A stretch of DNA of 63,358 nucleotides, the filler included, from an uncultured Methanosarcinales archaeon (lineage in GTDB: Archaea > Nanobdellota > Nanobdellia > Woesearchaeales > JACPBV01): NCBI GenBank assembly GCA_964492935.1. It is 5 parts of 5 records of this genome, joined end to end, with 100 filler letters (N's around TTAATTAATTAA, not from the genome) between each part and the next. Parts side by side here need not be neighbours in the genome. Positions count along the whole stretch, not along the records: positions 1 to 17,796 come from CAZBLF010000027.1; positions 17,897 to 34,567 come from CAZBLF010000028.1; positions 34,668 to 47,657 come from CAZBLF010000031.1; positions 47,758 to 60,730 come from CAZBLF010000032.1; 1 more part is not named here. One strand, given 5' to 3'. Below the pieces are notes generated by a model, which did no database searches, was not told the origin of the DNA, and saw only the letters and a program-made list of their open reading frames with translations. Shown one piece after another: positions 7,734-48,242 of the stretch (position 1 is the stretch's first letter; each line of letters opens with the position of its first letter). Position numbers and translations under genes: made by a program.

Positions 7734-7897
7734 GGCTCTGTAGAAAGTCTCACTTCGTTCTGGTCACCAGCTTCGAAATCCTGCTTTTGTGTATTGAAGG
7801 CTGACATTCTCCGTAGGAGCCAACCCACTTGTCAGTTTGCTCTAGAGATCAATGGGATTTCGACTTTATGCCGGTGACCAGGACTTGCTACTGAGCC
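7734..7897 (+). repeat. Dispersed structured element, copy A
   Basis: CTTCGAAATCC(7771)-16nt-AGGCTGACA-[TTCTCCGTAGGAGCCAACCCACT]-TGTCAGTTT-15nt-GGGATTTCGA; outer stems CTGGTCACC/GGTGACCAG and GGCTC/GAGCC. Confidence 0.8.
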
Positions 7898-7952
7898 GGT
7901 TTTTATACCATACCTTTAAAAAGTTTAAGGGTTTACTTGATTAGGGAATTTC

Positions 7953-9017
7953 ATGTCATTGTTCAAGGATATTTTGTCTTCTGAGGAAAGCGTGTTTAAG
8001 AATGAGGTAGCTTTGGATTTTTCGTTTCAGCCGAAGATTGTTCCTTATCGTGAACAACAGCAAAGGCAGATTGCGGAATGTATTAAGCCTTTATTTTCTG
8101 AACGAAATGGAAAGAATATGTTTATTCATGGTCCGCCGGGTGTCGGCAAAACGGTTGCGATTAAGCATGTGTTGAAGGAGTTGGACGAGGAGGCAGAGGA
8201 CATTCATATTTTATATGTTAATTGTTGGCAGAAAAATACTACGTTTAAGATTTTTGTTGAGTTGTGTGAGCAATTGGATTATCCACACACGCAGAACAAG
8301 GGTTCTGAGGAATTGTTTAAGGTTGTGAAGAATGTGGTGAATAAGGGTAGCGCCGTAATTGTGTTTGATGAGGTCGATAAGGTCGAGGATATGGACTTTT
8401 TGTATAGTATTTTAGAGGAGGTTTTTCGTAAGTCGCTTATTTTGATTACTAACTATCCTTCTTGGTTACAGAAGTTGGAGCAGAGGATTGTTTCTCGGAT
8501 TAATTTGCAGCAGCTTCCGTTTAGTTATTATACGTTACCGGAGACAAAAGTGATATTGCAGCAGCGTTTGAAATATGCCTTTCACGAGAATGTGGTGGAG
8601 GCTGGAGTTCTCGATTTAGTTGCTGAGAAAACGTTTGCAAGTAAGGATATGAGGATTGGTGTTACGCTGTTGCGTGAGGCCGGGATGCAGGCTGAGGAGC
8701 GAGCAAGTCGAACGGTGTCGGTTGATGATGTTACGAAATCTCTTGAGAGTAAGTTGGATTTGGATAGTACTGCTTCTATGGCAGATGATTTGGTTATTTT
8801 ATTGGAGTTAGTTAAAGAGCATCCTGGTTTGAAGATGGGTGAATTATTTGAGCAATACACTGCGGGTGGAGGAAGTGCATCCTACAGGACGTTTGCGCGC
8901 AAGATCAATAAGTTGGGAGATACGGGACAGGTTGTTCTGGAGAAGAAGTCGGGTGGTGCGGATGGAAGTACTACTTTAGTTCGTTTGCCTGCTGAGAAGA
9001 AGTTGACTGAATTCTGA
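7953..9017 (+). CDS. cdc6: Orc1/Cdc6 family replication initiator
   Basis: GPPGVGKT Walker A, YVNC, VFDEVD Walker B, C-terminal wHTH. Confidence 0.92.
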   Translation: MSLFKDILSSEESVFKNEVALDFSFQPKIVPYREQQQRQIAECIKPLFSERNGKNMFIHGPPGVGKTVAIKHVLKELDEEAEDIHILYVNCWQKNTTFKIFVELCEQLDYPHTQNKGSEELFKVVKNVVNKGSAVIVFDEVDKVEDMDFLYSILEEVFRKSLILITNYPSWLQKLEQRIVSRINLQQLPFSYYTLPETKVILQQRLKYAFHENVVEAGVLDLVAEKTFASKDMRIGVTLLREAGMQAEERASRTVSVDDVTKSLESKLDLDSTASMADDLVILLELVKEHPGLKMGELFEQYTAGGGSASYRTFARKINKLGDTGQVVLEKKSGGADGSTTLVRLPAEKKLTEF

Positions 9018-9054
9018 TGGGAAGCTATAAATAGCTGCACGGTTGTGTTATAGT

Positions 9055-9441
9055 ATGGTGAAATGGTTCGATGGAGGGAGCGTACAATCGTTACAGGGAA
9101 GGGAGCTAGATCGGTTAGAGCGAGGATTATCCAGTCTTAAAAGGGAAACTGACATTATTACTCGTATGAAGCAGCTTGTTCGAAAGCTCTCTTCAGGTAA
9201 GATTTCTCGTGAGGAAGTAACTGCTGAAAGTAAGGAGCTTAATATCTTGATGGGTGCTTTGGCAAACGAGGAGGAGAATGCGTTTAGCAATATATCTAGT
9301 GCAGAGGATTATCTCAAGGAGCAGCAGGCAAAAACTCGCGATGAGCATAAGAATACTAAACTGTGTACTTGTGGTAGGGAGGTTCCTACACGCCAGAAAT
9401 TTTGTGAATACTGCGGTTACAGTTTTCTTAAGAAACATTAA
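9055..9441 (+). CDS. Hypothetical coiled-coil protein with C-terminal zinc ribbon
   Basis: CTCG...FCEYCG. Confidence 0.7.
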   Translation: MVKWFDGGSVQSLQGRELDRLERGLSSLKRETDIITRMKQLVRKLSSGKISREEVTAESKELNILMGALANEEENAFSNISSAEDYLKEQQAKTRDEHKNTKLCTCGREVPTRQKFCEYCGYSFLKKH

Positions 9442-9710
9442 TGTCTTGCTGCGAAGTTGACGTAGTCGTTGTGGGGTTCTTTCCATTGTTCTATTACTCC
9501 ATCTACTATCGCGTTATCGGGTCCTTTCTTGCACCATTCTATTAATTGTTTGAGTTTGTCTTCAGGACCTTCTGCAATGACTTCTACGTCTCCGTTGGGC
9601 AGGTTTCTTACGAATCCTTTGATTTGTAGCTTGTGGGCTTGTTTAACGGTGTTATGTCTATAGAAGACTCCTTGGACCTTTCCTTTTATTGTTAGGTGGA
9701 GGTGTTTCAT
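9438..9710 (-). CDS. acyP: Acylphosphatase
   Basis: GKVQGVFYR, GFVRNLPNGDVEV; start moved to MKHLHL. Confidence 0.95.
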   Translation of the reverse strand: MKHLHLTIKGKVQGVFYRHNTVKQAHKLQIKGFVRNLPNGDVEVIAEGPEDKLKQLIEWCKKGPDNAIVDGVIEQWKEPHNDYVNFAARH

Positions 9711-9906
9711 TGTTCTTTTTGAGGTGTATTGGTTTAAATTTGTGTTGTTTTTGGTCACTTGCCAACTAGGCGTGTCCAGTCTGTGAGGCTTGAATTCTTT
9801 GGTTTTAGGGTTTGTAGGGGTAAAATGGGGTTGCACTTGCCACTTGCCAGGTGCGGGCGCGAGGTATATAAGTGATGAATGTGTTAAGAGTAGTAATTGG
9901 TCATTA

Positions 9907-9958
9907 AGGGCAGGTAACCTTAACACACCCCCTGTGTCTTCCTGCCCTTTATTTTTTT
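9907..9958 (+). other. GC-rich hairpin plus T-tract downstream of a TATA box (leader/attenuator or small RNA)
   Basis: AAGGGCAGG...CCTGCCCTT with inner ACAC/GTGT, then TATTTTTTT; TATATAA at ~9865. Confidence 0.5.
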
Positions 9959-9974
9959 CCAATGAGGTGAAACG

Positions 9975-10049
9975 ATGGTTGATGTTAGTCATAGCGCTAT
10001 AAAAAAAATATTTTTTGAACAAATAAAAACGCTCACACTAGGAGCATAA
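9975..10049 (+). CDS. 24-aa small ORF
   Basis: GAGGTGA Shine-Dalgarno; MVDVSHSAIKKIFFEQIKTLTLGA. Confidence 0.45.
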   Translation: MVDVSHSAIKKIFFEQIKTLTLGA

Positions 10050-10062
10050 GAGGTGGTTGAAG

Positions 10063-10182
10063 ATGTACGAAGAAACGGTGGAGAACGATATTTACAGGGA
10101 GGCTGGAGTGCTCGATTACTCGGACAACGACGAGATCAGCGCTATGGAAGAGGGCTTTATGCTCGGATACTTGGGGGCGTAA
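10063..10182 (+). CDS. 39-aa acidic small protein
   Basis: GAGGTGG SD; MYEETVENDIYREAGVLDYSDNDEISAMEEGFMLGYLGA. Confidence 0.7.
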   Translation: MYEETVENDIYREAGVLDYSDNDEISAMEEGFMLGYLGA

Positions 10183-10184
10183 AG

Positions 10185-10301
10185 ATGTTTTGGAACAAAA
10201 AGACGTTTATGGATTGGGATGATTACAAGAATAGAATTGATTTTTTGGATGTTTTCCACTTTCAACAGAAATGTAGGAGAGAGGCTTTGGCGAATATATA
10301 A
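10185..10301 (+). CDS. 38-aa small ORF
   Basis: Starts 2 nt after previous stop; MFWNKKTFMDWDDYKNRIDFLDVFHFQQKCRREALANI. Confidence 0.5.
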   Translation: MFWNKKTFMDWDDYKNRIDFLDVFHFQQKCRREALANI

Positions 10302-10346
10302 TTTCAGTACGCAAAGTATAAAAAGCTCTTTCTCCTCTCTTCTTTT

Positions 10347-10913
10347 ATGAGAGTTTTAACCAAGGATGAATTCAAGGTATGCAGCCAGGAATTGTTTGAA
10401 CTGATCAACGAAGGCAATGCGTTTGTTTATCCTACGGATACGATCTATGGTCTTGGATGTAATGCCGAGATTTTTGAGGCTGTTGAGAAGATTAGGGAAA
10501 TCAAGGATAGGCCTGAGGCTGCTTTTTCTGTGATTGCACCGAGTAAGAATTGGATTCGGATGCATTGTGAAATAAATGAATCGGCTGAGGCGTGGTTGGA
10601 GAAGTTGCCTGGGCCATATACACTTATTTTGCCTGCCAAAGATGGGATTGCTGAGAATGTGGCTCCCGGTAAGAAAACGCTTGGTGTGAGGATGCCGCAG
10701 CACTGGTTCTTAGATGTTGTTGCCGAATTAGGTAAGCCGATTGTAACGACTTCTGCTAATAGATCTGGAGATAATTTTATGACTTGCTTAGAGGATATGG
10801 ATGATGTTGTAAAGCAAGGAGTTACCTTTATGTTTTATGAGGGTGAGAAGAATGGTGCGCCTTCGACGATTGTAGATTTGAGTGAACCGTTTGCTAAGGT
10901 CATTGAACGGTAG
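10347..10913 (+). CDS. tsaC: Threonylcarbamoyl-AMP synthase (TsaC/Sua5 YrdC domain)
   Basis: YPTDTIYGLGC, KDR, PGPYT, TTSANRSG, PSTIVD. Confidence 0.93.
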   Translation: MRVLTKDEFKVCSQELFELINEGNAFVYPTDTIYGLGCNAEIFEAVEKIREIKDRPEAAFSVIAPSKNWIRMHCEINESAEAWLEKLPGPYTLILPAKDGIAENVAPGKKTLGVRMPQHWFLDVVAELGKPIVTTSANRSGDNFMTCLEDMDDVVKQGVTFMFYEGEKNGAPSTIVDLSEPFAKVIER

Positions 10914-10968
10914 CTGTGAACGTAGCTGGAAGCAAACGTTTTTATAGATTTTTAGTGTTCTTTAGGTT

Positions 10969-11697
10969 ATGGTTGAGAAAAAGAAAGTTGCTAAGGAGCC
11001 TAAACTAAAGAGTGAGGGAAAGCTTAAGATTCTTGCAGCTGGAGACAGCGAAGACAAAAAGTCTTCTGGCCTCCAACAGCAAAAAGAAGGTAAATTGAAA
11101 ATTCTTGCTGCTGGAGATATACACGGAGACGTGGGATTGGCTGAGAAGCTTGCTGAAAAGGCGGAAAAGGAGCATGTTGATCTAGTCGTTTTATGTGGAG
11201 ACTTGACGATGATGGAGGAGTCGACGGACAACATCATTGGACCGTTTAAGAAGCGTGGAGAGAAGGTGTTGATCATTCCTGGAAATCATGAGTCTAACGC
11301 TACTGCTGATTTTCTTGCAGAATTGTATGATGTAAAAAATATTCATGGGTATGGCGTTAAGTATAAGGATGTAGGTATCTTTGGTGCGGGTGGCGCGAAC
11401 GTTGGGGTACATCAGCTAGAGGAGAAAGAATTGTATGACAAATTGAAAGAGGGACATGACAAGGTTAAGTATTTGGAGAAGAAGATTATGGTTACGCATG
11501 TTCATCCTAAGGATACTATTATGGAGAAGTTTACAACTTTCTTTCCTGGTTCGTCTGGGATTCGGAAGGCGATTGATACGTTTAAGCCTGCGGTGATGTT
11601 GTGTAGTCACGTGCACGAGGCTGATGGTATTGAGGAGAAGATTGGGAAGACTTTGGTTATTAATGTTGGGAAGAAAGGGAAGATCATAGAGTTGTAA
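10969..11697 (+). CDS. Calcineurin-like metallophosphoesterase
   Basis: GDIHG, CGD, PGNHE, THVHP, SHVHE. Confidence 0.92.
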   Translation: MVEKKKVAKEPKLKSEGKLKILAAGDSEDKKSSGLQQQKEGKLKILAAGDIHGDVGLAEKLAEKAEKEHVDLVVLCGDLTMMEESTDNIIGPFKKRGEKVLIIPGNHESNATADFLAELYDVKNIHGYGVKYKDVGIFGAGGANVGVHQLEEKELYDKLKEGHDKVKYLEKKIMVTHVHPKDTIMEKFTTFFPGSSGIRKAIDTFKPAVMLCSHVHEADGIEEKIGKTLVINVGKKGKIIEL

Positions 11698-11705
11698 GGC
11701 GTTCT

Positions 11706-14204
11706 TTACTCTATTGTTATGATGTGGAAATCTCCGCTTTTCTTTAATTCTTGTACCAGTCCCGGTTCGTGATCCTTTCCAAAAAACACCAGCCCGACCT
11801 TTCTTTTTACCTTTTTCAATCCCCTTAGGAATTTTTCAATCCCTACTTGGTTTCTTAACTCTATTATTATTTTTCTCATATCGTTTAGATTTGGTACCTT
11901 CTTTGGGAGGTTGTACAGCGTGTGAAAATTCTTTTTCTGCCTTTCAGCTAATTTTCCATATTCTCCCCCTTCTACCTTTGCGTTTTTGAATTCTCCAGTA
12001 TTTTTCTCACAATTTTCTATTATTTTAAGTGTTCTAAGAATCTTCTCTGAGAGTTTTAGATCTATTTTCGAAATGCGTTTGAGTGCCTCTCCTTCAAGGA
12101 AATCAACTATTTTTGTGTATGGGCCACTTACGTCAACCAAGGGGTTACCGTGGAGTATACTTAGTACATACCTCCTCTGTTCATTTGCAAGGTTGAGATA
12201 TTTCAAGGAAGTACCCATTTGCGTCAAGGAGGCGGCAATATTACTCTGAGCTTGACCTATTCGCTCAAGGATACGAAAGAACAAAGCCGTAGGCAAGTCA
12301 CTAAGAATCTGTATCCTTTCTTCCTCTAATCCGATGAAAGGTACTTTTCCCGGTACTTGACGTATTTCACTCATTGCGCAAGGTGTCAGATGAGGATTAG
12401 TTCCCTTTAGCAGAAGCTTCAAAAGTTGTTCTTCGGCATTTAAGATCCCTCGAGAATTCTTCCCTGCCCAGCCTTCGAATCCAGCAAGAGAGGGATTTAC
12501 AATTTCAATAATTTTTTTCAATTCCTTAAGGTCCTCTTCCACCGTTTCTTCTAATTCGGCTTGCATTTCCTTCTTTGATTGGGGTGATGATGGCTTTCCC
12601 TCCCACCGTTTCATTACTCTTTTAGTGGTTCCTGTATGCTTATCCTTTACTATCAGTACTAGTGGAGCAGATTCGTTTTCTGCGCATATGAGCTTTACGA
12701 TACTAAATGATGAGGTGTTGTCAGTATATTTTGCTTTTTTGAGCTCAGTCGCATAATACTTAGCGTCTCGTAGAGATATGCTTATGTCTGATGGATCGGG
12801 CTTTTGAACCTCTTCGGATTCTTGCCTTTTTTCATTATTTTCTGGAGGATTTATATGCTCCTTTGCAATGGGAAGGGAGTCTGCTGTGTTTAGATTATCT
12901 TTTTGATCATCTTTTGCCTTTTTAACCGATTCTTTGATTTCTACTTTTGCTCGTTTTACTATGCGTCTCAACGTCTTAATCTCTCTTTTTTCTTCTGGGC
13001 GTGATTGCTTATTCCGGGCTCTGACCGTTTTCCATGCTTCGTTTGCATCATCGACTGCCTTAGGGAATCTGACTGCTTGAGTGTAACTCATCCAAGATAT
13101 TAGAAATCCTCCAAAAAGAGTAATGAATGCGCGGTTTGTCCAAGTGCCCATTCGTTGCATCCTCCAATTTCTCGATGCTTTTCTCGATTCTATTCTGTTA
13201 TGATCATTATCTTGTATGCTCGTCTCCAGAAGTTTTTGATATTCTGGATTATTTAGAATTTCTTCCAAAATTTTTTTTAATTTTTGATTGAGTTTTCCTT
13301 CTTGAGCGTAAAGTGCTGTAAGTTGAGTGCTATCCTTATCGTCAAGGGCTTTTTTCTGGGCTTGCACAATACTCAAAAGCTCCCCCTCTTTATTTCCTGC
13401 TGCGTTTGAGAATGCTTCAATCAGAGGAAAGATCACCTCGAGTATTATTGGGATATTTGATTTATCCTTTATTTTTTTCTTATTTTTTAGCAATAAAGAT
13501 ACATTTTTGTTAAGGTAGATGAGTATGTGGAGTTGCCTCTCAATTGCAACTCTTAGCCGTCCTTTTACTTGATCAGTCATTAGTACTTTTTTACTTCCTA
13601 GACATAGACTTTTCTCTTTTTCGACCCAGACTGATTCTCGTGCCGCATATTCACACACGCCTTGGATGTGCTCGGGACTGAGAACTCTGGAGAGGGCGAC
13701 ACTGGTTTCCCCTTTCAGTGCTTCAATTGCTGCTCGTTCTTCGCCCAATATTTTTCCTTCTTCTCGTATAAGTAGGATTAACTGGGGCGCATGTTGTCGT
13801 TCAATCATTAATTTGTCATCGCTCTGAGAAAAAAATTCTAGTTGATGAGCTATGTTGGCCTTGAGATGACCTAATCCTTTTTGAATTTTTGAAATTTCTG
13901 TTTGATCCACCAAGGTTTCTAGTTCAGATGATTCTATTTTTTCTATGGATTTATCCAGATCGGATTCGAATTTAGCAACGGATTTCTTATCGATTTCATC
14001 GATATGGTGCATTGCTTTCATTAGCTTTCGGAGTTGATTTAGTTTTCCTTTGTCCCAAGTATCGAGAAAATTTTCTACCAGAGTTAGCTTTTTTTTGAAT
14101 TGATTCTCCATTTTAGCACAATCTTTGAGAATTTTGTGTACATCAACATTATCTTTTTTAAGAAAGCGACCTTTTTCTTTAAGGAAATCTGCAAACATGC
14201 CCAT
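11706..14204 (-). CDS. Large membrane-anchored hypothetical protein (coiled coil, TM, possible TraB/EreA-like C-terminal domain)
   Basis: 832-aa ORF; central TM; FEG, RN and FFGKDH motifs. Confidence 0.7.
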   Translation of the reverse strand: MGMFADFLKEKGRFLKKDNVDVHKILKDCAKMENQFKKKLTLVENFLDTWDKGKLNQLRKLMKAMHHIDEIDKKSVAKFESDLDKSIEKIESSELETLVDQTEISKIQKGLGHLKANIAHQLEFFSQSDDKLMIERQHAPQLILLIREEGKILGEERAAIEALKGETSVALSRVLSPEHIQGVCEYAARESVWVEKEKSLCLGSKKVLMTDQVKGRLRVAIERQLHILIYLNKNVSLLLKNKKKIKDKSNIPIILEVIFPLIEAFSNAAGNKEGELLSIVQAQKKALDDKDSTQLTALYAQEGKLNQKLKKILEEILNNPEYQKLLETSIQDNDHNRIESRKASRNWRMQRMGTWTNRAFITLFGGFLISWMSYTQAVRFPKAVDDANEAWKTVRARNKQSRPEEKREIKTLRRIVKRAKVEIKESVKKAKDDQKDNLNTADSLPIAKEHINPPENNEKRQESEEVQKPDPSDISISLRDAKYYATELKKAKYTDNTSSFSIVKLICAENESAPLVLIVKDKHTGTTKRVMKRWEGKPSSPQSKKEMQAELEETVEEDLKELKKIIEIVNPSLAGFEGWAGKNSRGILNAEEQLLKLLLKGTNPHLTPCAMSEIRQVPGKVPFIGLEEERIQILSDLPTALFFRILERIGQAQSNIAASLTQMGTSLKYLNLANEQRRYVLSILHGNPLVDVSGPYTKIVDFLEGEALKRISKIDLKLSEKILRTLKIIENCEKNTGEFKNAKVEGGEYGKLAERQKKNFHTLYNLPKKVPNLNDMRKIIIELRNQVGIEKFLRGLKKVKRKVGLVFFGKDHEPGLVQELKKSGDFHIITIE

Positions 14205-14236
14205 ATCAAGATTCAGGGAGTAATAGTATATAAATT

Positions 14237-15670: not shown

Positions 15671-15671
15671 T

Positions 15672-16094
15672 TTAGATGTCGTGGACTACCTGTAGTGTTG
15701 TTTGAGTTGGTGTTTCTTTAATAAACATATCGCTATAGGTGACTGACTTAATGTAGGTGTGGACGTCATAGTTATCACCGTTGTCGCCTAGGATGGTTGC
15801 TTTTAATTGGAAATTGGATTTGTTTTCTTTGATTTCAATTGCTTTTACTTTACTCAGCAGGAAACCTTCGATATCGGTTAATACAATGAGTTCTTCTAGG
15901 AAATCGTAGAGCAAGGATTCCTTCTTCTTCGAAGTTACCTTAATTGTTTTTTCTTCTACCGCTTTTACTTTCTTTACATCAGTCATCACGTCATAGGATG
16001 CTATCGCGGCATTGGCGAAAGCTTCTGCTAGGGTTTTGCCATAGGCTAGAAACTTTACATCTGCTGTATGGTCTAGGAATTCGTATTTTTTCAT
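15672..16094 (-). CDS. Archease
   Basis: YEFLDHTAD, IKSVTY, terminal HDI; adjacent to rtcB. Confidence 0.95.
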   Translation of the reverse strand: MKKYEFLDHTADVKFLAYGKTLAEAFANAAIASYDVMTDVKKVKAVEEKTIKVTSKKKESLLYDFLEELIVLTDIEGFLLSKVKAIEIKENKSNFQLKATILGDNGDNYDVHTYIKSVTYSDMFIKETPTQTTLQVVHDI

Positions 16095-16828: not shown

Positions 16829-16866
16829 GTGGTGAAAGTGCCTCGTTTTCTTTTAAATGTTTACTT

Positions 16867-17490: not shown

Positions 17491-17539
17491 AGCTCTCAGA
17501 GGTGGATTTTTCTTTAAAAAGTTGATGTACAGTAGGAGT

Positions 17540-17796
17540 TAGTGGTTAAATCCAGTCATTCCACTAGTGTGTTCACCAGTGGTTCACATATCAGTTCCAT
17601 TCGGGAGTCAAGAACCACTTATCTGATAGTTAGAGTACCCACATGCCATTGGCCTATTGACCGGTGGTTCTTGACAAAGAAAAAAAAGACCTTCATGGAA
17701 ATCATCTTGGGGGTGGTTAACATGAAGGCTTAAGAATGTGATTCTTGGCCTCTCCTGGTCTGGTTTAAAGGAGAATTCCGTACTCTGCTTTAGCAG
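17540..17796 (+). ncRNA. Candidate structured RNA region truncated by contig end
   Basis: 12-bp IR GTCAAGAACCAC (17607-17618)/GTGGTTCTTGAC (17664-17675); CCTTCATG/CATGAAGG; TCTCCT/AGGAGA; TAGTGG/CCACTA. Confidence 0.35.
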
Positions 17797-17896
17797 NNNN
17801 NNNNNNNNNNNNNNNNNNNNNNNNNNNNNNNNNNNNNNNNTTAATTAATTAANNNNNNNNNNNNNNNNNNNNNNNNNNNNNNNNNNNNNNNNNNNN
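17797..17896. other. Artificial contig linker
   Basis: N44-TTAATTAATTAA-N44. Confidence 0.98.
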
Positions 17897-20623: not shown

Positions 20624-20630
20624 GGTATTG

Positions 20631-24796: not shown

Positions 24797-25489
24797 ATGG
24801 AAATAATTAAAGGTGAGAGAAAAGAGGCAGAGCGAAAAGCGGCCGATGCAATTGCTGCAGAGATCAATAATTTGTTGACGCAGCAGGATACGGTTACGTT
24901 GGGATTGGTTGGCGGTACGTCGGTTGCGGGAGTCTATGATTGGCTTAAAGAAACGGTTGTTGACTGGAAAAAGGTGCTGGTGTTCTTGGTCGATGAGCGG
25001 ATGGTTGATGTTGATAGCGATGAAAGTAATTTTAAATTGATTCGAGGTGCGTTTACGCATGATCTCGTTACTTCGGGCAAGATGCCCCAGGAGAATGTGC
25101 ATCCTTTTGTGTATAATGCTGAGGTGCAGGATTTAGGAGTTGTGAAATATCTTCGCCAGATGGAGGATATTGGGAAAAAGTATGATGTGATTGTGGTGAG
25201 TGCTGGAGAGGATGGGCATATTGGTGCATTGTTTCCTCGGCATGATTCATTGGCATCGGATGCTGACTGTTTATTGGCGATGGATGATAGTCCTAAACCT
25301 CCTGCTCGACGTTTGACGATAAGTCGCGCGATGGTGTTGCGATCACAGGTTGGCTTTGTCTTGTTTTTTGGTGAAGGGAAGAAAAAAGCATATGCTGCGT
25401 TTTCAGATTTGGATACGAAGATTGCGGATTGTCCTGCTTCGTTGTTGCATCACTTACCTAAGGCGTATGTGGTTACGGATCTTTCTTAG
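24797..25489 (+). CDS. pgl: 6-phosphogluconolactonase
   Basis: GGTS, DERMV...SN, GEDGHIGALFP, SPKPPARRLT. Confidence 0.92.
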   Translation: MEIIKGERKEAERKAADAIAAEINNLLTQQDTVTLGLVGGTSVAGVYDWLKETVVDWKKVLVFLVDERMVDVDSDESNFKLIRGAFTHDLVTSGKMPQENVHPFVYNAEVQDLGVVKYLRQMEDIGKKYDVIVVSAGEDGHIGALFPRHDSLASDADCLLAMDDSPKPPARRLTISRAMVLRSQVGFVLFFGEGKKKAYAAFSDLDTKIADCPASLLHHLPKAYVVTDLS

Positions 25490-25653
25490 NNNNNNNNNNN
25501 NNNNNNNNNNNNNNNNNNNNNNNNNNNNNNNNNNNNNNNNNNNNNNNNNNNNNNNNNNNNNNNNNNNNNNNNNNNNNNNNNNNNNNNNNTGCTTCGTTGT
25601 TGCATCACTTACCTAAGGCGTATGTGGTTACGGATCTTTCTTAGTTTATATGT

Positions 25654-25773
25654 GCATAGCATCTTCGAAATTCTTGCTTCTGAATCTGAAGGCTCTGTCT
25701 TCCCGTAGGGTGCGACCCCTGACAACGAGCCTGATTTGGGAAATGATAGAATTTCGAACCTGGGATGCTATAC
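25654..25773 (+). repeat. Dispersed structured element, copy B
   Basis: ATAGCAT-CTTCGAAATTC(25663)-16nt-AGGCTC-TGTC-[TTCCCGTAGGGTGCGACCCCT]-GACA-AC-GAGCCT-16nt-GAATTTCGAA-CCTGGG-ATGCTAT. Confidence 0.85.
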
Positions 25774-25855
25774 CCATTCTTAGCTTCCGTTAGTGGTAAT
25801 TCTGTTACGATATCTTTAAATATGATTCTGGCTTAACGATTGTTAAGTTATTACG

Positions 25856-38775: not shown

Positions 38776-38803
38776 ACTCGGCTCTTTTCTTTTTCTTTCA
38801 TTT

Positions 38804-38921
38804 GAATTAAGCATTTTGAAGTCGAAATCTATCAGGAATATATCTAGCTCGTCGTTGGGGTGGTGCCATCCGGGCCACAGAGCCCCCTAGAATGAGGTAG
38901 GATTTCGAAGATGCCTAATTC
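38804..38921 (-). repeat. Dispersed structured element, copy C (inverted)
   Basis: Reverse complement: GAATTAGGCAT-CTTCGAAATCC-14nt-GGGCTC-TGT-[GGCCCGGATGGCACCACCCCA]-ACG-AC-GAGCT-15nt-AGATTTCGA-CTTCAAA-ATGCTTAATTC. Confidence 0.82.
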
Positions 38922-38967
38922 TTTCATTTTTCAATAGTTTAATAAAGGTAATAATCAAAAACAGAGT

Positions 38968-39507
38968 ATGAATAAGCACGAACTCCATCACAAAACCGAG
39001 CTTCTCATCGACAAATTAATACCCTGGATGCTGCTCCTGCTTTTTGGAATTATTGCCGCAGAGTTTTTTTTTGAAGAAGTGGTAGCAAAATACCATCTTC
39101 ATCCCTGGATCATAGCAGCCGACACCCTAGTCGTAGCCGTCTTCATTGTCGACCTGGTCTTCAAATATCAACGTGTTATGAAAGTAGACAAATTCATTAA
39201 AAAATACTGGCTGGAAATCTTAGCAGTGTTCCCCTTCATCCTCTTCTTCAGATTCTTTGAAGGAATCTTTAGCTTCTTTATTGCAGAAGAAGCGCTCAAA
39301 CATTCACAATCAATTATTCACGAAACCCTAGAACTAGAAAAGGGGGGAGCAAAGATTTTCAGAGAGGCAGAAAAGGCATTCAAAGTTTCACGAACACGCG
39401 CCTTTACAAGATTCATTAGACCACTCGCCAGAACTCCGAGATTTCTAAAATATATGCCTCGACTCGGGAAATATCTTCACTTCTACGAAAAACCTACAAA
39501 ACACTAA
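38968..39507 (+). CDS. Ion-transport (voltage-sensor-like) domain protein lacking a pore
   Basis: VFIVDLVFKY (S2-like), KKYWLEILAVFPF (S3-like), Arg-periodic RTRAFTRFIRPLARTPRFLK. Confidence 0.7.
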   Translation: MNKHELHHKTELLIDKLIPWMLLLLFGIIAAEFFFEEVVAKYHLHPWIIAADTLVVAVFIVDLVFKYQRVMKVDKFIKKYWLEILAVFPFILFFRFFEGIFSFFIAEEALKHSQSIIHETLELEKGGAKIFREAEKAFKVSRTRAFTRFIRPLARTPRFLKYMPRLGKYLHFYEKPTKH

Positions 39508-40970: not shown

Positions 40971-42013
40971 TATATCGTCAATTCCCCAATAATAGTTCGA
41001 AATCCCTCTTCCTCCTGAATGAGGCTACTATAATAATTGCCCTTTCTAGCCTGAGTACATCCGAACAGATAAAACGGAACCTTGCCCTCATTATTAAATG
41101 CTTTGAAAAGTTCTAGTGCCTGACGCGAAACGCCCGTCTCTTTCTCGAGTGTGGTCAAATCATCGCCCGTATCAAGCTGCCATCGGTGTAAAGTAACACC
41201 TTCAAATCCATCAACAGCACGAACCAATGCCGGCTCTATCCAAGTGCAAGCCTCACAGGTACTTGTAGTAAAGACGTGCAGCAGAATCTTTCCCTCGTCC
41301 ATACAAACAGTCTCATCAATTTCCGTAAAACCAGCTCTCCCATCATCCTGGGGTTCACCCTCTAAGACGATATTGCTTGTAGAACGTAATTGACTCAAAT
41401 AAAGTGATACAGCAGCATTTGTTTGCTCAAAGAGAAGTTGCTGTCGAATAGGATCTGCAATCTGCTCAAAAGGAAGTGCTACTCCATCAACGGTAAACTC
41501 CTCTAATCGGGAATTGTAAAAATCTAACACCTCTGCCTCACTCACCTCGAGAGAGGGGAGAATGGTAGCGTCAATCAATTTATTAATCAAAAGCTGATCA
41601 TGCAAATCACTACGTAAATTATCTCGAGTTAATCCTTGTTGGTCTAAAAAATCATCAAGTGAGGTACCTTCCGGAATCTGATCCTCGAGCAAAGCAAAAG
41701 AATCCTCTAATTCCTCCTCACTCACCACCTCACCTTTTCGAATAGCCTCCTGAATCAACAATTTTACATCAATAAGTTCACTCAAAAACTCCTGCTCACT
41801 AAGAACCTCTGAATACTCTGCTGGAAGCTGAGCATACCGAGTGCTCAATTCACGAGCCGTAATCTTCTCGCCATTAACCAATGCTACAGTAGGGTTACCA
41901 ATCGAAAGTGTTCGTAACCCAAAATAAACAATCACACCGAGTACAATAACAAGGATGCCTACTACAAGAACTTTCTGAGAAAAAAGCTTTTTGTTTTTTG
42001 TTGTTTCAGTCAT
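40970..42013 (-). CDS. SurA N-terminal domain plus thioredoxin-like protein
   Basis: VALVNGEKIT, LLIQEA; CEAC. Confidence 0.75.
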   Translation of the reverse strand: MTETTKNKKLFSQKVLVVGILVIVLGVIVYFGLRTLSIGNPTVALVNGEKITARELSTRYAQLPAEYSEVLSEQEFLSELIDVKLLIQEAIRKGEVVSEEELEDSFALLEDQIPEGTSLDDFLDQQGLTRDNLRSDLHDQLLINKLIDATILPSLEVSEAEVLDFYNSRLEEFTVDGVALPFEQIADPIRQQLLFEQTNAAVSLYLSQLRSTSNIVLEGEPQDDGRAGFTEIDETVCMDEGKILLHVFTTSTCEACTWIEPALVRAVDGFEGVTLHRWQLDTGDDLTTLEKETGVSRQALELFKAFNNEGKVPFYLFGCTQARKGNYYSSLIQEEEGFRTIIGELTI

Positions 42014-42128
42014 CTGAGTTAATAGTCTACCAGAACCTCTTAAAAGAACAAAAAATTGACGATATATAAAGATTTCTGATTATCTTCACTACCCCTAAGT
42101 TCAAAATAAGCTAATTTCCAATAACTTT

Positions 42129-43475
42129 ATGTACTCCTATGCTCCAAATCAACAGATGTATGACGTAGTAGTGGGAAGAAGCGAGTCAGATAAAAAAAAG
42201 TTCGGGACCAAAGGCGCAGTTTTCATGGGCAAACACTATGTCCACATGGGTTCCACCACCTCCCTCTCAAATAAAATCTATCTTGACGTGACGAGAAGCC
42301 ACGTAGTTTTCTTGTGCGGCAAAAGAGGATCTGGAAAATCGTATACCATGGGAGTAATTGCAGAGGGAGTTGCAGATCTCCCAGTAGATGTCAAAGACAA
42401 CATCGCAATCATCATGCTCGACACCATGGGAGTCTATTGGCCGATGAAATACGCCAATAAAAAGGAAGGCGATCTGCTCAAGGAATGGGATCTAGAAAGC
42501 AAAGGACTAGACATCAAAATCTATACTCCTAAAGGATACTTCCAAGAGCAACTCGACAAAGGCATTCCCACCGATGAACCTTTCTCCATCAAACCAGCCG
42601 AGTTAGATGCAAGCGATTGGTGCCTCACCTTCGAAATCGAGATTAGTAGCCCAGAGGGCGTACTGATTGAAACCACCATCAACGATCTGCTCGATACAAA
42701 CAAACCCTTCGATCTCGAAGACATCAAAAAAGCGATCAAAAATCAAAAAGGGGTAGAGGACCACGTAAAACAAGCCGTCATTAACAGGTATACTGCCGCC
42801 AACAAATGGGGACTCTTTGACAAAGATGGAACACCCCTACACGAACTCGCTAAAGGAGGCCAAGTCACCGTTCTTGACGTGAGTTGTTATGCAACCGCTC
42901 CCGGAACGCAGGGGTTAAGGGCATTAGTCATCGGATTAGTAGCTGAGAAACTCTTTGTAGAACGAATGATTGCCCGTAAGGAAGAGGAGATCCAACAAAT
43001 CAAAGAAAAGGAACACGTCATGCGTGAAAAAGTACAAAAAAAACAAAAAGATCCGTTGGTATGGTTAGTAATTGATGAGGCCCACGAATTCCTTCCAAAA
43101 GAGGGTCAAACAGCAGCATCACATCCCTTAATCATCATCCTACGAGAAGGCCGACAACCCGGAATCTCACTCATCCTAGCAACACAACAACCGGGAAAGA
43201 TCCATACCGACGTCATGACCCAGTCCGATATCGTCATCTCCCATAGGTTAACTGCGAAGATGGATGTAGAAGCCCTAGGAATGGTCATGCAGAGCTATAT
43301 GCGTGAAGGTCTCGATAAACAAATCAACAACCTCCCCCGTCTAAAAGGTTCCGCAGTAGTCTTCGATGACAACAACGAAAGAATGTATGCCATGCGCGTC
43401 CGTCCAAGATTTACGTGGCACGGCGGCGAAGCTCCAACCGCAATGAAAGAAGATAAAAAAGTGTTCGACTTCTAA
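42129..43475 (+). CDS. HerA/FtsK-superfamily ATPase (DUF87-like)
   Basis: GKRGSGKS, LVIDEAH, REGRQPG..LATQQP. Confidence 0.88.
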   Translation: MYSYAPNQQMYDVVVGRSESDKKKFGTKGAVFMGKHYVHMGSTTSLSNKIYLDVTRSHVVFLCGKRGSGKSYTMGVIAEGVADLPVDVKDNIAIIMLDTMGVYWPMKYANKKEGDLLKEWDLESKGLDIKIYTPKGYFQEQLDKGIPTDEPFSIKPAELDASDWCLTFEIEISSPEGVLIETTINDLLDTNKPFDLEDIKKAIKNQKGVEDHVKQAVINRYTAANKWGLFDKDGTPLHELAKGGQVTVLDVSCYATAPGTQGLRALVIGLVAEKLFVERMIARKEEEIQQIKEKEHVMREKVQKKQKDPLVWLVIDEAHEFLPKEGQTAASHPLIIILREGRQPGISLILATQQPGKIHTDVMTQSDIVISHRLTAKMDVEALGMVMQSYMREGLDKQINNLPRLKGSAVVFDDNNERMYAMRVRPRFTWHGGEAPTAMKEDKKVFDF

Positions 43476-43476
43476 T

Positions 43477-43677
43477 CTATTTTTTCTTACCCATTTCCGG
43501 CAACACCGGAGAATACGTCATCGAAATCATCGAAGCAATAAACATCAAGATAAAGAACAACGAAAACGTGAATCCCCAAGTCCTACTAAAAGAACTAATG
43601 TAAAAGATTGAAATCATAATACCTAAAATCGAAACCGCTGCAAAAGCATTATTTAATGGTGCCACTCTTGGTAACAT
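43477..43677 (-). CDS. Small two-TM protein
   Basis: GAGGTGG SD, hydrophobic. Confidence 0.7.
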   Translation of the reverse strand: MLPRVAPLNNAFAAVSILGIMISIFYISSFSRTWGFTFSLFFILMFIASMISMTYSPVLPEMGKKK

Positions 43678-43797
43678 ACTACCACCTCAAGTGACTTCCT
43701 AGGTAAGGAGTATATAAATTTTTGGAAAAAGTTCAGTACTATACGGATATTACAATTGTGCGAAAAGCTTTTATAATAGAAAGTCCAGAAAATATTC

Positions 43798-44309
43798 ATG
43801 TGGCCATTTAGTAACATGTGGAGAGCGGTAAGTCCAAGAGCTCGAGCAGCTCATGTCGGGAGAATCATTGCCGAGAGAGAGAGCGGAAGGGCGCAAGATT
43901 TCTCGAATTAAAGAAAAACGACCCAAAGATGAGAAGGAAATTTGAAAGAGATGTGAACAACCTTCTCGCTATAGGTCACTTCAATGACTTTTTTTCGATG
44001 TCCATAGATACAGGTAGCGAGAGTATGGGTACTAGGGACGGCGATGTATACGGGAGAGCAGGGAAAAGGACAAAACACCAAACGTTCATGTTGGATCACT
44101 TTAAGGGGAGAGTAAATCAAGTAAAAGGTATGGCCAGTAAAGAGCGAGTCTTCAAAGATAAAGCAAAAGACTTGCTAGAAAAAGCGTTTGATGAGCTTAA
44201 TGCATCAAAAAGTAGGTTTAGGGGAATAAAAGTTGCGAATTCTGGAGATATTGAAGGTTACCTCCCCCAGTTTAGAAGAATTATCAGTGAAGTAAGTAGA
44301 TACAATTAA
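43798..44309 (+). pseudogene. Hypothetical protein probably frameshifted at (GA)5G 43873-43883
   Basis: TATA-proximal ATG 43798 (MWPFSN...) joins the long ORF if one GA unit is removed. Confidence 0.5.
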
Positions 44310-44361
44310 AGATTCCCCATTCTAACTATTTTTTCAACTGAACAGATCTTTGCGAAAGAGA

Positions 44362-45573
44362 TCACTCATACCTCAAAGCATCAACCGGCTTCTGCCGAGA
44401 CGCATGCAATGCAGGAAGAAAACCAGAACCGGCTCCCACCAAAAAAGCAAACATCAAACAGCCCACAATTAACCACCACGGAAATGCCGGTTTCAATAAA
44501 CCAAGCCCTGCCTGTGCAGCCGCGAAACCTCCAATCGAAGCAATCAAATAACCAAGAATAATCCCAATCACACCACCAACAAGCCCCAACAATCCCGATT
44601 CAACAACAAACACCGTCAAGATGCTCTTATTACGCGAACCCACTGCCTTCATAATGCCGATCTCCTTCGTCCGCTCCAACACTGCAGTATACATCGTGTT
44701 CATGATATTGATAGCTGCAATCACCAAAGAAATCAATGCAATAAGCACCAAAACCCCATTCAAAACAACAATCACATTCGTAAAAGCCTCAATAAATTGA
44801 TCAAAGGTCTGGACAAAAAAGTCCTCCTCACCCTCCTTCTGTCCCTTCCGCTTCCTAAATTTCTCCTCAGCCCGCTCAGCAACCAGTACCGGATCTTCAC
44901 CCGGACCGGCCTGCAGCGTTACCATAGCATATCCTCTGTCCCCAAAAATCTCCAAGAAACCCTCCTCACTCAGATAGACATTACGATCATCCTCTGGATT
45001 TCCAAGCGATTCAAAGAAACCCACAATCTCCACCTTCACGCCATTCACAAAAATCCGGTCTCCCAGATGCAAAGCTTCCGGAAAAACCTTGTCAGCAAGC
45101 TGGTAATTATATCCAACAGCGACCTTCAACTTATCACCGCCCTTCAAATTTCGTCCAGACTCAATATCTACATTATAGACTGCTTCAATCAGATGTCGGC
45201 TAGAATCCGTAGGAGAACCTATTACATACACATACCGCGGCAACTCATCCTCCTCCGCTCTCACCTCAGCATTCACGAAATACATTCCCGCAACATCAAC
45301 AACCCCTCTAATCTTAGAAAAAAAATCTACATCCTCATCCGAGAAAGTAACCCCGCTACTTCCTGGCGGTCCAAAACCCCGAGCCTGCACCACAAGCTTA
45401 TCCGTCCCCAACTCCTTAGAGAAATCATCAATATACTGCTTCATCCCCTGACCAAAACTAACAAGTGCAAAGATCGCCATAATCCCAATAAGAATAGAAA
45501 GCACCGTCAAAAAACTCCGCATCTTACGTTCCCAAATATTACGCAACGAATACACCAATAAATCCATATTCAT
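44362..45573 (-). CDS. MacB/FtsX-family ABC permease
   Basis: RSFLTVLSILIG, NTMYTAVLERTKEIGIMKAVG, PVDALRYE. Confidence 0.93.
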   Translation of the reverse strand: MNMDLLVYSLRNIWERKMRSFLTVLSILIGIMAIFALVSFGQGMKQYIDDFSKELGTDKLVVQARGFGPPGSSGVTFSDEDVDFFSKIRGVVDVAGMYFVNAEVRAEEDELPRYVYVIGSPTDSSRHLIEAVYNVDIESGRNLKGGDKLKVAVGYNYQLADKVFPEALHLGDRIFVNGVKVEIVGFFESLGNPEDDRNVYLSEEGFLEIFGDRGYAMVTLQAGPGEDPVLVAERAEEKFRKRKGQKEGEEDFFVQTFDQFIEAFTNVIVVLNGVLVLIALISLVIAAINIMNTMYTAVLERTKEIGIMKAVGSRNKSILTVFVVESGLLGLVGGVIGIILGYLIASIGGFAAAQAGLGLLKPAFPWWLIVGCLMFAFLVGAGSGFLPALHASRQKPVDALRYE

Positions 45574-46793
45574 TTACCAGCCCTCAACGCATCTACCGGA
45601 GGCAATTTAGCAGCCCGCATCGCTGGAGTAATCCCGAACACCACCCCAATAACAAAAGAAAACAATAAAGCCCCTACAATGAGTCCAACACTAAACTGAG
45701 CCTGAATAAGATCGCTACCCAATGCAATACTTCCGAGAGCAGCCATACTCGAAGCGCCAATAACACCAATTGCCACCCCGACAATCCCTCCTACAATACC
45801 TAACAAACCCGATTCCAAAAAGAACAACAAAAAAATAGAACTATTCCTAGCACCAATCGATTTCATGATACCAATTTCCTTAGTTCTCTCCAATACCGAG
45901 GTGTACATAGTATTCAAGATCCCTATCCCTCCAACAATCAAAGAAATGCTAGCAATAATAATAACAAAAATATTAATTCCCAACAAGATAGAATTGATGT
46001 TCTCAATCGCAGCCGCAGCCGTTTCAACACCAAAATCCTCCTCTCCTTCCTTAACATCTCTCTCCTTGCGCAAAAATCTTTCAACAGAATCCCTAATCTC
46101 CTCTGCCTCATCTTTATCTTCAGCCCGTATCGCAATCATATCGTACTGCTCTTTCGGAATCTCAAAAAGATCTCGCATCGGCTCCTCATTCAATACAATA
46201 GAGCCATCAAAAAGAAAGCTTCCCTGACTCTTCAACACACCAACCACCTTGAACGGTTTACCCTCAATCTCAACCTTTGCACCCGGCAAAATCTCTTTGC
46301 CAAATGAATCTTCTTCAGCCACTGCGCTCCCAACAACCACTGAATTACCATCACCATCTCTCAATAATCTACCCTTAACAACTTCATAATTTATAGCCTC
46401 CTCAATCTCCTCCCGATCCTCTCCATCCGGCATACTGAGAGCTATCCCAAAACCAATCTGATCGTTAAATCGTAAACTACCGGGTCGCGTCAATCTCCCA
46501 GCAACCATCCTCACCCCTTGAATATGCTCAATGCCCTCGACATTAGATTGCGTTAACGGATTGGCAACCACCGTAGTTCCAGGAGGTGCTAAACTATTTC
46601 CTATACTCACCCTAATCAAATCAGGACTCAGAAAACCGAATTGTGAATTTATACCTGAACGCAGACCCTCGCCCAATGAAATCAAAGAAACAACCGCAGC
46701 AATTCCAATAAAAATACCTAATAGCGTCAGATAGCTGCGCAATCTTCTACTACGTAAATTGTCTATGCAGAAAGAGAGATAATCCTGGAACAT
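45570..46793 (-). CDS. MacB/FtsX-family ABC permease (paralogue)
   Basis: RSYLTLLGIFIG, ERTKEIGIMKSIG. Confidence 0.93.
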   Translation of the reverse strand: MFQDYLSFCIDNLRSRRLRSYLTLLGIFIGIAAVVSLISLGEGLRSGINSQFGFLSPDLIRVSIGNSLAPPGTTVVANPLTQSNVEGIEHIQGVRMVAGRLTRPGSLRFNDQIGFGIALSMPDGEDREEIEEAINYEVVKGRLLRDGDGNSVVVGSAVAEEDSFGKEILPGAKVEIEGKPFKVVGVLKSQGSFLFDGSIVLNEEPMRDLFEIPKEQYDMIAIRAEDKDEAEEIRDSVERFLRKERDVKEGEEDFGVETAAAAIENINSILLGINIFVIIIASISLIVGGIGILNTMYTSVLERTKEIGIMKSIGARNSSIFLLFFLESGLLGIVGGIVGVAIGVIGASSMAALGSIALGSDLIQAQFSVGLIVGALLFSFVIGVVFGITPAMRAAKLPPVDALRAGK

Positions 46794-46802
46794 CCAGCAA
46801 CC

Positions 46803-47657
46803 TCATTTCTTTTTCTTTTTCCATCTACGGTAGCCATACAGTCCCCCTCCCACAATAAGTAACATGATGAGGAATCCACCAAAGCCGCTACCTTCCTTTA
46901 AGCCAAGCTTCTTAGCCTGGGATGAACTATATAAGCGAAGAACCACATCAACCTGCTCCTCAAACAGATTATTATTAGCATCTCGATATTCAAGCAACAA
47001 CGGAACACCCACCTGACTACCCTTCACACGTTCAAGCGCAAGATCAAAAGAAGCAGTTTCATAATCATCACTATCCACGTTACCCACATACACTTCGGGC
47101 TGCGACAACACCGCATAGGTATCACTTTCAAGCACCGAAGCCCTCAAAAATTTAATATCCGTGACGCCATGATTCACAAAACGAACCGTTACCTCACCTG
47201 TTTGTGAGGAACCATACACGTCAGATGTATCCACATACGCCAATAATTCAGGAACCCCTCCAATAATGATACCTACCGTATCATTTCGAGTGTAGATAGT
47301 TCCCAACCGATCGTTATACGTCAATTCAACAGGAAGTTTGTATAAGGAAGACGCTGCATCCGGTTCAGCCACAACCGTAAATTCCAAAGTAGTACGCTCA
47401 CCGGCATCCAAGAAGGAAACAACCTCTTCATTGGTTCCTCGCAATGTCGCAATCGGCAAACCATCCAGATTCAACACAACACGAATATTTCTAAAAAAGG
47501 CTGATGCAAGATTTACCAATTCAACCCTCAACTTCGCCTCACTGCCCTGATGCAACTGACTCGGTATCGTGGTTACAGATTCGATATGTAAGATAGCGTG
47601 ACTCGGCAACACCTCAATCACAAAAGGATCCGGCTTCACCCAGACCGTTTGAAGGCT
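46803..47657 (-). CDS. COG1361 S-layer-like protein, 5' truncated
   Basis: Ig-like repeats, VGNVDSDDYETA, C-terminal TM plus basic tail; upstream of MacB permeases. Confidence 0.75.
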   Translation of the reverse strand, partial: SLQTVWVKPDPFVIEVLPSHAILHIESVTTIPSQLHQGSEAKLRVELVNLASAFFRNIRVVLNLDGLPIATLRGTNEEVVSFLDAGERTTLEFTVVAEPDAASSLYKLPVELTYNDRLGTIYTRNDTVGIIIGGVPELLAYVDTSDVYGSSQTGEVTVRFVNHGVTDIKFLRASVLESDTYAVLSQPEVYVGNVDSDDYETASFDLALERVKGSQVGVPLLLEYRDANNNLFEEQVDVVLRLYSSSQAKKLGLKEGSGFGGFLIMLLIVGGGLYGYRRWKKKKK

Positions 47658-47757
47658 NNNNNNNNNNNNNNNNNNNNNNNNNNNNNNNNNNNNNNNNNNN
47701 NTTAATTAATTAANNNNNNNNNNNNNNNNNNNNNNNNNNNNNNNNNNNNNNNNNNNN
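47658..47757. other. Artificial contig linker
   Basis: N-TTAATTAATTAA-N. Confidence 0.98.
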
Positions 47758-48015
47758 GCTACGTTTATTGGGTTGGTGAAGAAGGCTGAGTTTGCACGGA
47801 AGCAGTCGCGGGCATTGTATAAGAATTTGGAGATTCTGGAAAAGAAAAAGTTGATTGTGTATAAGAATAAGGAATTGATGTTGACGGCGCGTGGAAAGAA
47901 ATTGTATGGCTCTATTGATGCTCGTGTGATGCCGTATGTGGATGTGGTGAGTCGATTACGGGAGAGCAATGTCAGTACGTCTGCTAAGAAAGTGCAGACG
48001 GTGTTTGCTTCGTAG
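47758..48015 (+). CDS. Winged-helix protein, C-terminal fragment
   Basis: RALYKNLEILEKKKLI...LTARG. Confidence 0.7.
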   Translation, partial: ATFIGLVKKAEFARKQSRALYKNLEILEKKKLIVYKNKELMLTARGKKLYGSIDARVMPYVDVVSRLRESNVSTSAKKVQTVFAS

Positions 48016-48066
48016 CGTAACATTTAAATAAGGGTTTTTCTCATAGAGCATTAAGTTGGCTACTTT

Positions 48067-48104
48067 GCGTGTGGATCTTTCTACACGTTTTTTTTTATTT
48101 TTTT
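48067..48104 (+). terminator. Hairpin plus poly-T terminator-like element
   Basis: GCGTGTGGA-TCTT-TCTACACGT followed by T-tracts. Confidence 0.55.
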
Positions 48105-48116
48105 CTTTGTTCTATA

Positions 48117-48242
48117 ATGTGCTTAGCGTCTTCAAAATTCGAGTCCTTTGATTATTAGGTGCTGCGTTCCCGATGGAGCGTCCCCTCGCGACGCACTCGC
48201 TGTTTATCTGAATGAATTTTGACCTAAGGAAGCTATGCACAT
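48117..48242 (+). repeat. Dispersed structured element, copy D
   Basis: ATGTGCTTAGCGT-CTTCAAAATTC(48130)-16nt-AGGTGC-TGCG-[TTCCCGATGGAGCGTCCCCT]-CGCG-AC-GCACT-16nt-GAATTTTGA-CCTAAGGA-AGCTATGCACAT. Confidence 0.82.

Follow-up and report, generated by a model that had tools for sequence, protein, structure and literature searches.

What are the four short, strongly structured loci that lie scattered among unrelated genes in a 63,358-nucleotide stretch of DNA from an uncultured archaeon of the DPANN group (Woesearchaeales; assembly GCA_964492935.1)? This whole stretch, hereafter the window, consists of six assembly pieces joined by N/TTAATTAATTAA linkers and has a G+C content of 42%. An inspection of the DNA without database searches (the sequence-only reading) had proposed that the loci, here called copies A to D, form one dispersed family of covarying elements, and had offered two explanations: an undescribed family of non-coding RNAs, ribozymes or guide RNAs, or a non-autonomous mobile element of DPANN archaea that moves through single-stranded hairpins. 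We conclude, with a probability of roughly 85%, that the family is a non-coding transposable element of the miniature inverted-repeat kind (MITE), which is moved by an IS66-type transposase and has an unusually well-kept fold.

That the four loci belong together was confirmed by a covariance model (R1) built from the four window copies and two relatives. When the whole window was scored, copies B, D, A, and C gave 122.5, 120.8, 108.1, and 104.6 bits, respectively, on the strands originally proposed, compared with 13.6–29.1 bits on the opposite strand of the same loci. No fifth copy was found within the window, where the next-best place scored 9.9 bits. The anchor pattern of the sequence-only reading had 3 matches against 0.01 expected, with copy C escaping the exact pattern, and a BLASTN comparison of the window with itself (E ≤ 1e-5) left the four copies unlinked. 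The expectation of many copies per genome holds in relatives, with at least 93 R1 matches in genome G001 (150 of 312 candidates scored) and 28 in G002, three of the latter being opposite-strand duplicates; the copy number in related genomes ranges from a few to ~90.

Mobility is indicated by the flanks. Among 80 distinct copies printed with their flanking sequences, 8-bp direct repeats abut termini of the form GTAT...ATAC. Exact (8/8) target-site duplications surround 20 of 78 copies, while a control, in which the upstream flank of one copy was paired with the downstream flank of another, gave a mean of 1.0 and a maximum of 4 in 200 trials; a further 21 of the 78 copies have duplications matching at 7/8 positions (control mean, 12.6). 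In the window, copies A, C, and D have exact duplications and copy B agrees at 7/8. Because these duplications fix the element ends at 7734–7897, 25648–25778, 38804–38921, and 48114–48243, the boundaries given previously proved exact for A and C but had to be moved outward for B (from 25654–25773) and D (from 48117–48242). The copies are 118–183 bp long (118–164 bp in the window) and have no coding capacity, and the four window copies sit between open reading frames (ORFs). Their terminal inverted repeats measure 13–16 bp, with this outermost helix (helix 1) paired in >90% of cells across 79 copies, and the terminal motif occurs 53 times in forward and 50 times in reverse orientation in G001. 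What the sequence-only reading called the outer stem is, in most copies, a transposon's terminal inverted repeat. The family thus combines the features by which MITEs are recognized, namely small size, terminal inverted repeats, a duplication of fixed length and, for two subfamilies, an autonomous element with matching ends, and it was the second of the two original explanations, that of a non-autonomous mobile element of DPANN archaea, that these features bore out.

The autonomous element is an insertion sequence of ~1.6 kb, which has its 13-bp termini and its duplication length of 8 bp in common with the two commonest MITE subfamilies and encodes a DUF2080 protein and an IS66-family DDE transposase. 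At locus L187 of G001, GTATTTGTTTAGC is located at position 800 and its reverse complement ends at 2389, which is the contig end; two overlapping ORFs encode a 45-aa DUF2080 protein (31 bits, cut-off 21.5) and then a 450-aa DDE_Tnp_IS66 protein (113.6 bits). A complete ~1.6-kb element with the same 13-bp termini was found at L192 of G026, with ATTTTTGT duplicated on both sides and a transposase homologue of 55% identity. At L188 of G073 the left terminus GTATGTGCATAGC lies ahead of a homologous ORF, and the terminus types of L187 and L188 are those of the two commonest MITE subfamilies. The partner transposases match PF03050 at 113.6–129.8 bits (cut-off 23.1). The R1 core is absent inside the insertion sequences, which past their 13 terminal bases bear no relation to the MITE. 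IS66-family elements are characterized by an 8-bp duplication and by termini beginning with GTAA; those of the partner begin with GTAT, and GTAA is found in L186 and in the MITEs of G092. The canonical IS66 form has three genes, including the accessory tnpA and tnpB; here a 45-aa DUF2080 ORF is all that precedes the transposase gene, and for this reason we regard the partner as a one-transposase-gene variant of IS66. Supplied in trans, this transposase would bind the shared termini and move the MITE. The IS66 terminal type is that of copies B and D in the window, and copies A and C have other termini. Two other insertion sequence families were considered as partners and rejected: IS1595 was found in 0 of 5 genomes, and ISL3 in 1 of 5, where the ends of the G073 ISL3 element differ from every MITE type. 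At L187:870–889 and the equivalent place of L192, shortly ahead of the start codon of DUF2080, a small inverted pair repeats the terminal core TTAGCTA; judged from its sequence, this pair may offer the transposase additional binding sites or serve in regulation.

The termini enclose a core of ~100 nt, which does not derive from the insertion sequence. On one strand it forms a long bulged hairpin, which begins with the terminal stem and a 3' bulge of 5–7 nt and goes on through a stem of 9 bp and a large internal loop to an inner stem with an AC bulge; a small pyrimidine/purine hairpin, the head, caps it. The earlier claim that pairing is kept by compensatory changes stood up well: RNAalifold predicted 36 pairs from six sequences, and at 20 of these both sides have changed with pairing kept, and in 79 copies double changes were found at 32 of the 38 pairs of the corrected structure. 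In the same 79 copies 88.5% of 2943 cells are paired, compared with 70.7% in shuffles and 34–47% in slid controls, and the covariation score is 0.499 versus 0.174 in shuffles (none of 500 shuffles reached either value). Mutual information ranks the Watson–Crick partners at the top among column pairs. The wobble pairs are one-sided in the inner stems (G.T 57 vs. A.C 10), including one pair with 24 G.T and no A.C that is also found as G-C, U-A, and A-U, whereas the terminal repeats contain 14 G.T and 20 A.C. This difference in wobble counts indicates that the interior folds as one particular strand and that the termini act as double-stranded binding sites. Insertions of 40–60 nt are confined to the loop or linker of the head, whose three strands stay intact. 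Across subfamilies conservation is strongest in the head, and the structure of the interior has been kept better than that of the termini. The 14–16 nt segments that had been described as variable are, by eye, as conserved as the rest in near-identical copies.

The head contains a second signal. It is composed, in order, of a pyrimidine run, a 3–4 nt loop, a purine run, a 4-nt linker, and a second pyrimidine run leading into the 3' strand of the inner stem, and mutual information also links its columns in a parallel, not antiparallel, register. At a parallel offset of +9, 238 of 278 purines are opposite a Hoogsteen-compatible pyrimidine, and A is opposite T in 33 of 54 cases, compared with 0–21 of 54 at eight other offsets. 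Counted over 43 distinct head types, A is opposite T in 23 of 36 cases (shuffle mean 8.3; 0 of 5000 shuffles reached the observed value). The two informative columns hold GC 48, AU 16, and other 2, and GC 44, AU 13, GU 3, and other 7, respectively, and the patterns seen are GGAG with CCTC, GGGA with CCCT, GGGG with CCCC, GAGG with CTCC and, at offset 8, GGAA with CCTT. Since this signal is a mirror repeat, Watson–Crick pairing is ruled out as its cause. From the sequence, a pyrimidine-motif triple helix can explain the mirror repeat, the strand order allowing it if the 4-nt linker spans the stack, and the arrangement of the head fits that expected for a triple helix of 4–5 layers with C+.G-C and U/T.A-U/T triples. 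Pyrimidine-motif triples are known in telomerase RNA pseudoknots, in ENE/MALAT1-type RNAs, and in SAM-II-type pseudoknots, mostly as U.A-U stacks in pseudoknots or with A-rich tails. The head resembles these in that a short helix has a pyrimidine strand running alongside its purine strand in parallel, with G facing C and A facing U; its stack would be unlike them in its mostly C+.G-C composition, its 4–5 layers, and the continuation of its strands from the supporting stem. We take the likeness as one of possible mechanism and not of membership.

The same core occurs between several kinds of termini. Beside the IS66 type these include GGCTCTGTAG, GGCTATTATGAAA, and the type of copy C, and the low-scoring copies of five further genomes have the core between different ends: GGCTCTGTAGAAAGTC, the type of copy A, in G028; GTAAGTATAAAGTC in G092, where one copy has an exact AATTTTTC duplication; GGCTATTATGAAATCC in G053; and further types in G008. 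The long forms have their terminal repeat as an additional helix on the very outside, and the stem that is terminal in the short forms covaries freely in them. Apparently unpaired termini were considered as ends of further partners and rejected: the G028 motifs have no transposase beside them but RtcB, a gene resembling aspartyl-tRNA synthetase, and an ORF without annotation, and those of G001 and G073 belong to ordinary or nested copies. A second small module was observed inside G001 MITE copies (L136:1092–1266, L153, L154, L157, L172:499–829, and L155). Containing TTAGGAGACCGCAGTCGAG, often beside a TGAGTGCGCTCACA palindrome, this possible nested mini-element is inserted as ~40 nt into the head linker or where terminus and core meet; both orientations occur, and L172 has it three times. 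At L180:449–898 of G073, a 450-bp element with GTATGTGCATAGC termini has a different interior that is GC-rich and highly self-complementary, and this is another passenger between the same ends.

Several observations weigh against, or limit, the conclusion that an IS66-type transposase moves a MITE with a selected fold. Only 20 of the 78 duplications are exact. No joint skipping copy D was found in the contigs of four DNA runs (X6, X9, X10, and X12), and no relative is near enough for an empty-site comparison, the best DNA identity to a flanking gene being 75%. The window contains no transposase; PF03050 was found in two of five MITE-rich genomes (G001 and G073) and not in G075, G058, or G060; and G026, which has the complete insertion sequence, has no R1 match. 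Over 101 genomes, transposase homologue and MITE coincide in 6, compared with 3.4 expected (odds ratio 2.7, one-sided p = 0.086), but metagenome-assembled genomes (MAGs) lose insertion sequences during assembly, so this weak co-occurrence neither supports nor refutes the link to the partner. Copies A and C and the G028, G053, and G008 subfamilies have other termini, and neither the terminal types of copies A and C nor the GGCTCTGTAG type yielded a partner. As for the fold, the shuffle tests overstate independence, the copies being related. About five distinct purine patterns underlie the triple-helix signal, and independent events are few; five low-scoring G008 copies mostly break the mirror rule by eye; and a purine-motif triplex on the opposite strand fits the mirror repeat equally well. 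The copies show no orientation bias with respect to flanking ORFs (between co-directional genes, 20 are sense and 25 antisense), and broken core pairs are only slightly more numerous in copies with decayed duplications than in the others (1.68 and 1.10 of 20, respectively; p = 0.08).

If the family is an IS66-mobilized MITE, the fold would have been selected because it helps the element to spread; it may draw both element ends together or serve as a single-stranded intermediate, or it may instead act as RNA once transcribed. We rank a cis-acting role in spread, through end pairing or a single-stranded intermediate, first, and a role at the RNA level second, as a distinctly smaller share of our expectation. 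In its stronger form the second idea holds that the core is a functional structured RNA cargo of the transposon, such as an element that confers stability, a decoy for a protein, or a small regulator, whose fold is kept for the sake of the transcript; it overlaps with the transposon explanation and differs from it solely in the purpose of the fold. The lack of an insertion sequence origin, the sharing of the core among several terminal types, the conservation of the head across subfamilies, and the one-sided wobbles of the inner stem (57 vs. 10) would all suit a cargo of this kind, as would covariation of a tertiary type together with insertions confined to loops, both typical of folded RNAs, and a perfect core in copy B despite its decayed right terminus and duplication. 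On the other hand, no conserved promoter was seen by eye within the element or at a fixed distance from it in 80 copies (a TATA-like run in the 5' loop, considered as an internal promoter, is limited to one subfamily by eye), the unbiased orientation disfavors any role relying on read-through transcription, Rfam has no match, and the patchy distribution (23 of 101 genomes) suits a selfish element better than a host function. We therefore consider an RNA cargo possible but unlikely. A broader version, which we put forward tentatively, is that the core is a self-contained triple-helix-capped RNA or structured single-stranded DNA, captured between at least four kinds of terminus and spreading as cargo through the genomes of DPANN archaea. 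It is likewise a speculative suggestion that such a module parasitizes several transposases and has an activity of its own, e.g., RNA stabilization, protein capture, or catalysis.

Independent, non-mobile small RNA genes, whether H/ACA-like or C/D-like guides or ribozymes, each with its own promoter, are very improbable. The hairpin with its large internal loop, the AT-rich TATA-like stretches that, by eye, precede copies A, C, and D by ~25 nt, and the lack in the window of any tRNA or known RNA that accounts for the loci might have pointed to such genes. The copies are, however, flanked by target-site duplications and share their termini with an insertion sequence, and the AT-rich stretches fall beyond the duplications and show no conservation in the 80 copies. 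The strands of the internal loop are not diversified between close copies, as guides would be, and by eye the window copies lack both a GA/GA kink-turn and an ACA box following the lower stem; H/ACA and C/D guide RNAs were thus rejected, the required boxes being absent and the loop strands conserved. As for the non-coding RNA, ribozyme, or guide family first proposed, independent genes gain no support, and no guide-like variable loops are seen. The absence of a described RNA family was rightly anticipated: Rfam gave no match in the whole window at the gathering score and none on copies A and B in E-value mode, and the match of a G001 copy to RF02844 is on the opposite strand at 16.7 bits (gathering score 49), which is at chance level. 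ARAGORN reported no tRNA anywhere in the window; by this program, then, the copies do not qualify as unusual tRNAs.

IS200/IS605 (Y1/HUH) and REP/RAYT families have sub-terminal hairpins and a Y1/HUH partner, with neither target-site duplications nor terminal inverted repeats. A single-stranded DNA transposon of this kind, recognized by its hairpin, was suggested by the sequence-only reading and would suit a whole-element hairpin with one-sided wobbles, but it is hardly credible given the 8-bp duplications, the terminal inverted repeats, and a matching autonomous element that encodes a DDE transposase (no Y1 transposase search was made), all of which argue for ordinary DDE transposition.

Copy A (7734–7897, plus strand, 164 bp) belongs to a long-terminal subfamily, with the R1 match covering 7755–7887. 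Its termini are GGCTCTGTAGAAAGTC... and ...GAGCC, as in the G028 copies, and it has the additional outermost helix and a 5' bulge, TCACTTCGTT; the target-site duplication GGTTTTTAT, read directly at 7725–7733 on the left and again at 7898–7906 on the right, includes 8 true bp and 1 ambiguous bp. Copy B (25648–25778, plus strand, 131 bp) has a left end of the IS66 type, ATATGTGCATAGCATC, a decayed right end, and an intact core, and folds at −45.3 kcal/mol (z −5.29); its flanks CTTAGTTT and CTTAGCTT are those that agree at 7 of 8 positions. Copy C (38804–38921, minus strand, 118 bp) has shorter ends, GAATTAGGCATC... and ...GCTTAATTC, which are unlike the insertion sequence termini, and an exact 8-bp duplication, AAATGAAA, at 38922–38929 and 38796–38803. 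Copy D (48114–48243, plus strand, 130 bp) has IS66-type ends, ATAATGTGCTTAGCG... and ...GCTATGCACATA, and an exact 8-bp duplication, TTTGTTCT, at 48106–48113 and 48244–48251.

The neighboring genes were confirmed by Pfam as permease/Cdc6, FTR1, a Toprim protein, and PGM/PMM for the four copies, respectively. The likely PGM/PMM start codon lies ~46 nt downstream of copy D. The longest PGM/PMM ORF begins at an ATG within the right end of copy D (window 48235–48289), but the Pfam domain starts at residue 20, and the true start is therefore probably the ATG near 48290. The ORFs adjoining copies D and C at 47760–48023 (minus strand) and 38968–39504 (plus strand) have no Pfam match. On either side of the 100-N gap upstream of copy B, 55 bases at 25435–25489 are identical to those at 25590–25644, 4 bp from the element; the two pieces are therefore contiguous, separated by no more than an assembly break whose ends overlap. 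At 47758–48190 the summed contig depth in four DNA runs is 3–8 times that of the remainder of the piece, and in all four runs one contig departs from the window sequence at 48104, with an odd joint from 56299 to 48087. The T-rich stretch upstream of copy D may be shared with another locus.

Beyond G001 and G002, R1 matched 23 of 101 genomes sampled from the order of G001 (E ≤ 0.001), with counts of up to at least 33 per genome, and 11 of 151 genomes sampled from the phylum (E ≤ 1e-15). Numerous matches touch contig ends, as is expected of repeats. A pattern scan of species-representative genomes returned at least 119 loci; among those listed, two match R1 (L021, from G001, and L077, from G002), both from archaeal MAGs, and the other 117 are not family members by R1. 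Viral contigs contained at least 100 pattern loci, none of which matches R1 among the matches listed. The Toprim gene flanking copy C has matches in 362 of 401 genomes of the order (a tally that includes unpublished genomes) at a DNA identity of 75% or less, and the window is therefore without a close relative among the genomes searched.

Our element resembles MITEs mobilized by insertion sequences in being small and free of ORFs, in having identical termini and an 8-bp duplication, and in occurring in a patchy manner as tens of mostly intergenic copies. Ordinary MITEs are deletion derivatives with a drifting interior. Here, unlike in such MITEs, just 13 terminal bases are shared; what lies inside did not arise by deletion from the insertion sequence but is a conserved, structured module unrelated to it, which also occurs between other termini. 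The ERIC/IRU elements of enterobacteria and the Correia/nemis elements of Neisseria are imperfect palindromes of 100–155 bp that form long RNA hairpins when transcribed, and to our knowledge no triple-helix-like head has been reported for them. The present family is similar in being an imperfect palindrome of about this size, but it has no sequence relation to them and differs in duplication length and partner. As far as the accessible part of the source goes, bcr1 of the Bacillus cereus group is a mobile, transcribed element of ~155 bp in which compensatory changes keep an RNA structure (PMC3184786). This reminds us of our element, both being dispersed units of ~130–160 bp with short flanking direct repeats and stems kept by compensatory changes; bcr1 differs, according to the same part of that paper, in being bacterial and in having 5-bp direct repeats, a cruciform-like two-stem fold, and documented transcription (PMC3184786). 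The element described here is archaeal and has 8-bp duplications, an IS66-type partner, and one long hairpin whose head resembles a triplex. The kind as such, a MITE whose structure is maintained by compensatory changes, is known, bcr1 being described so in the accessible text (PMC3184786); what is new is the host group, the pairing of the MITE with an element that combines DUF2080 and an IS66-type transposase, a core not derived from an insertion sequence across terminal types, and the triplex-like covariation. No publication on the element was found in a literature search, whose scope excluded supplements and ISfinder, and the accessible parts of PMC13343696 and PMC3189936 hold nothing specific on it.

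With at least 93 matches of ~135 nt in 1.4 Mb, these elements make up ~1% of some small DPANN genomes. They break assemblies, as seen from the copies at contig ends and from the 100-N gap 4 bp from copy B, and they sit just upstream of housekeeping genes. A model of the family would improve annotation and binning and prevent confusion with RNA genes. We know of no account in which end pairing by IS66-family enzymes has been worked out, and the fold would bear on this process if it aids transposition. If the fold acts as RNA instead, the family would represent a structured RNA that spreads on DNA transposons in archaea.

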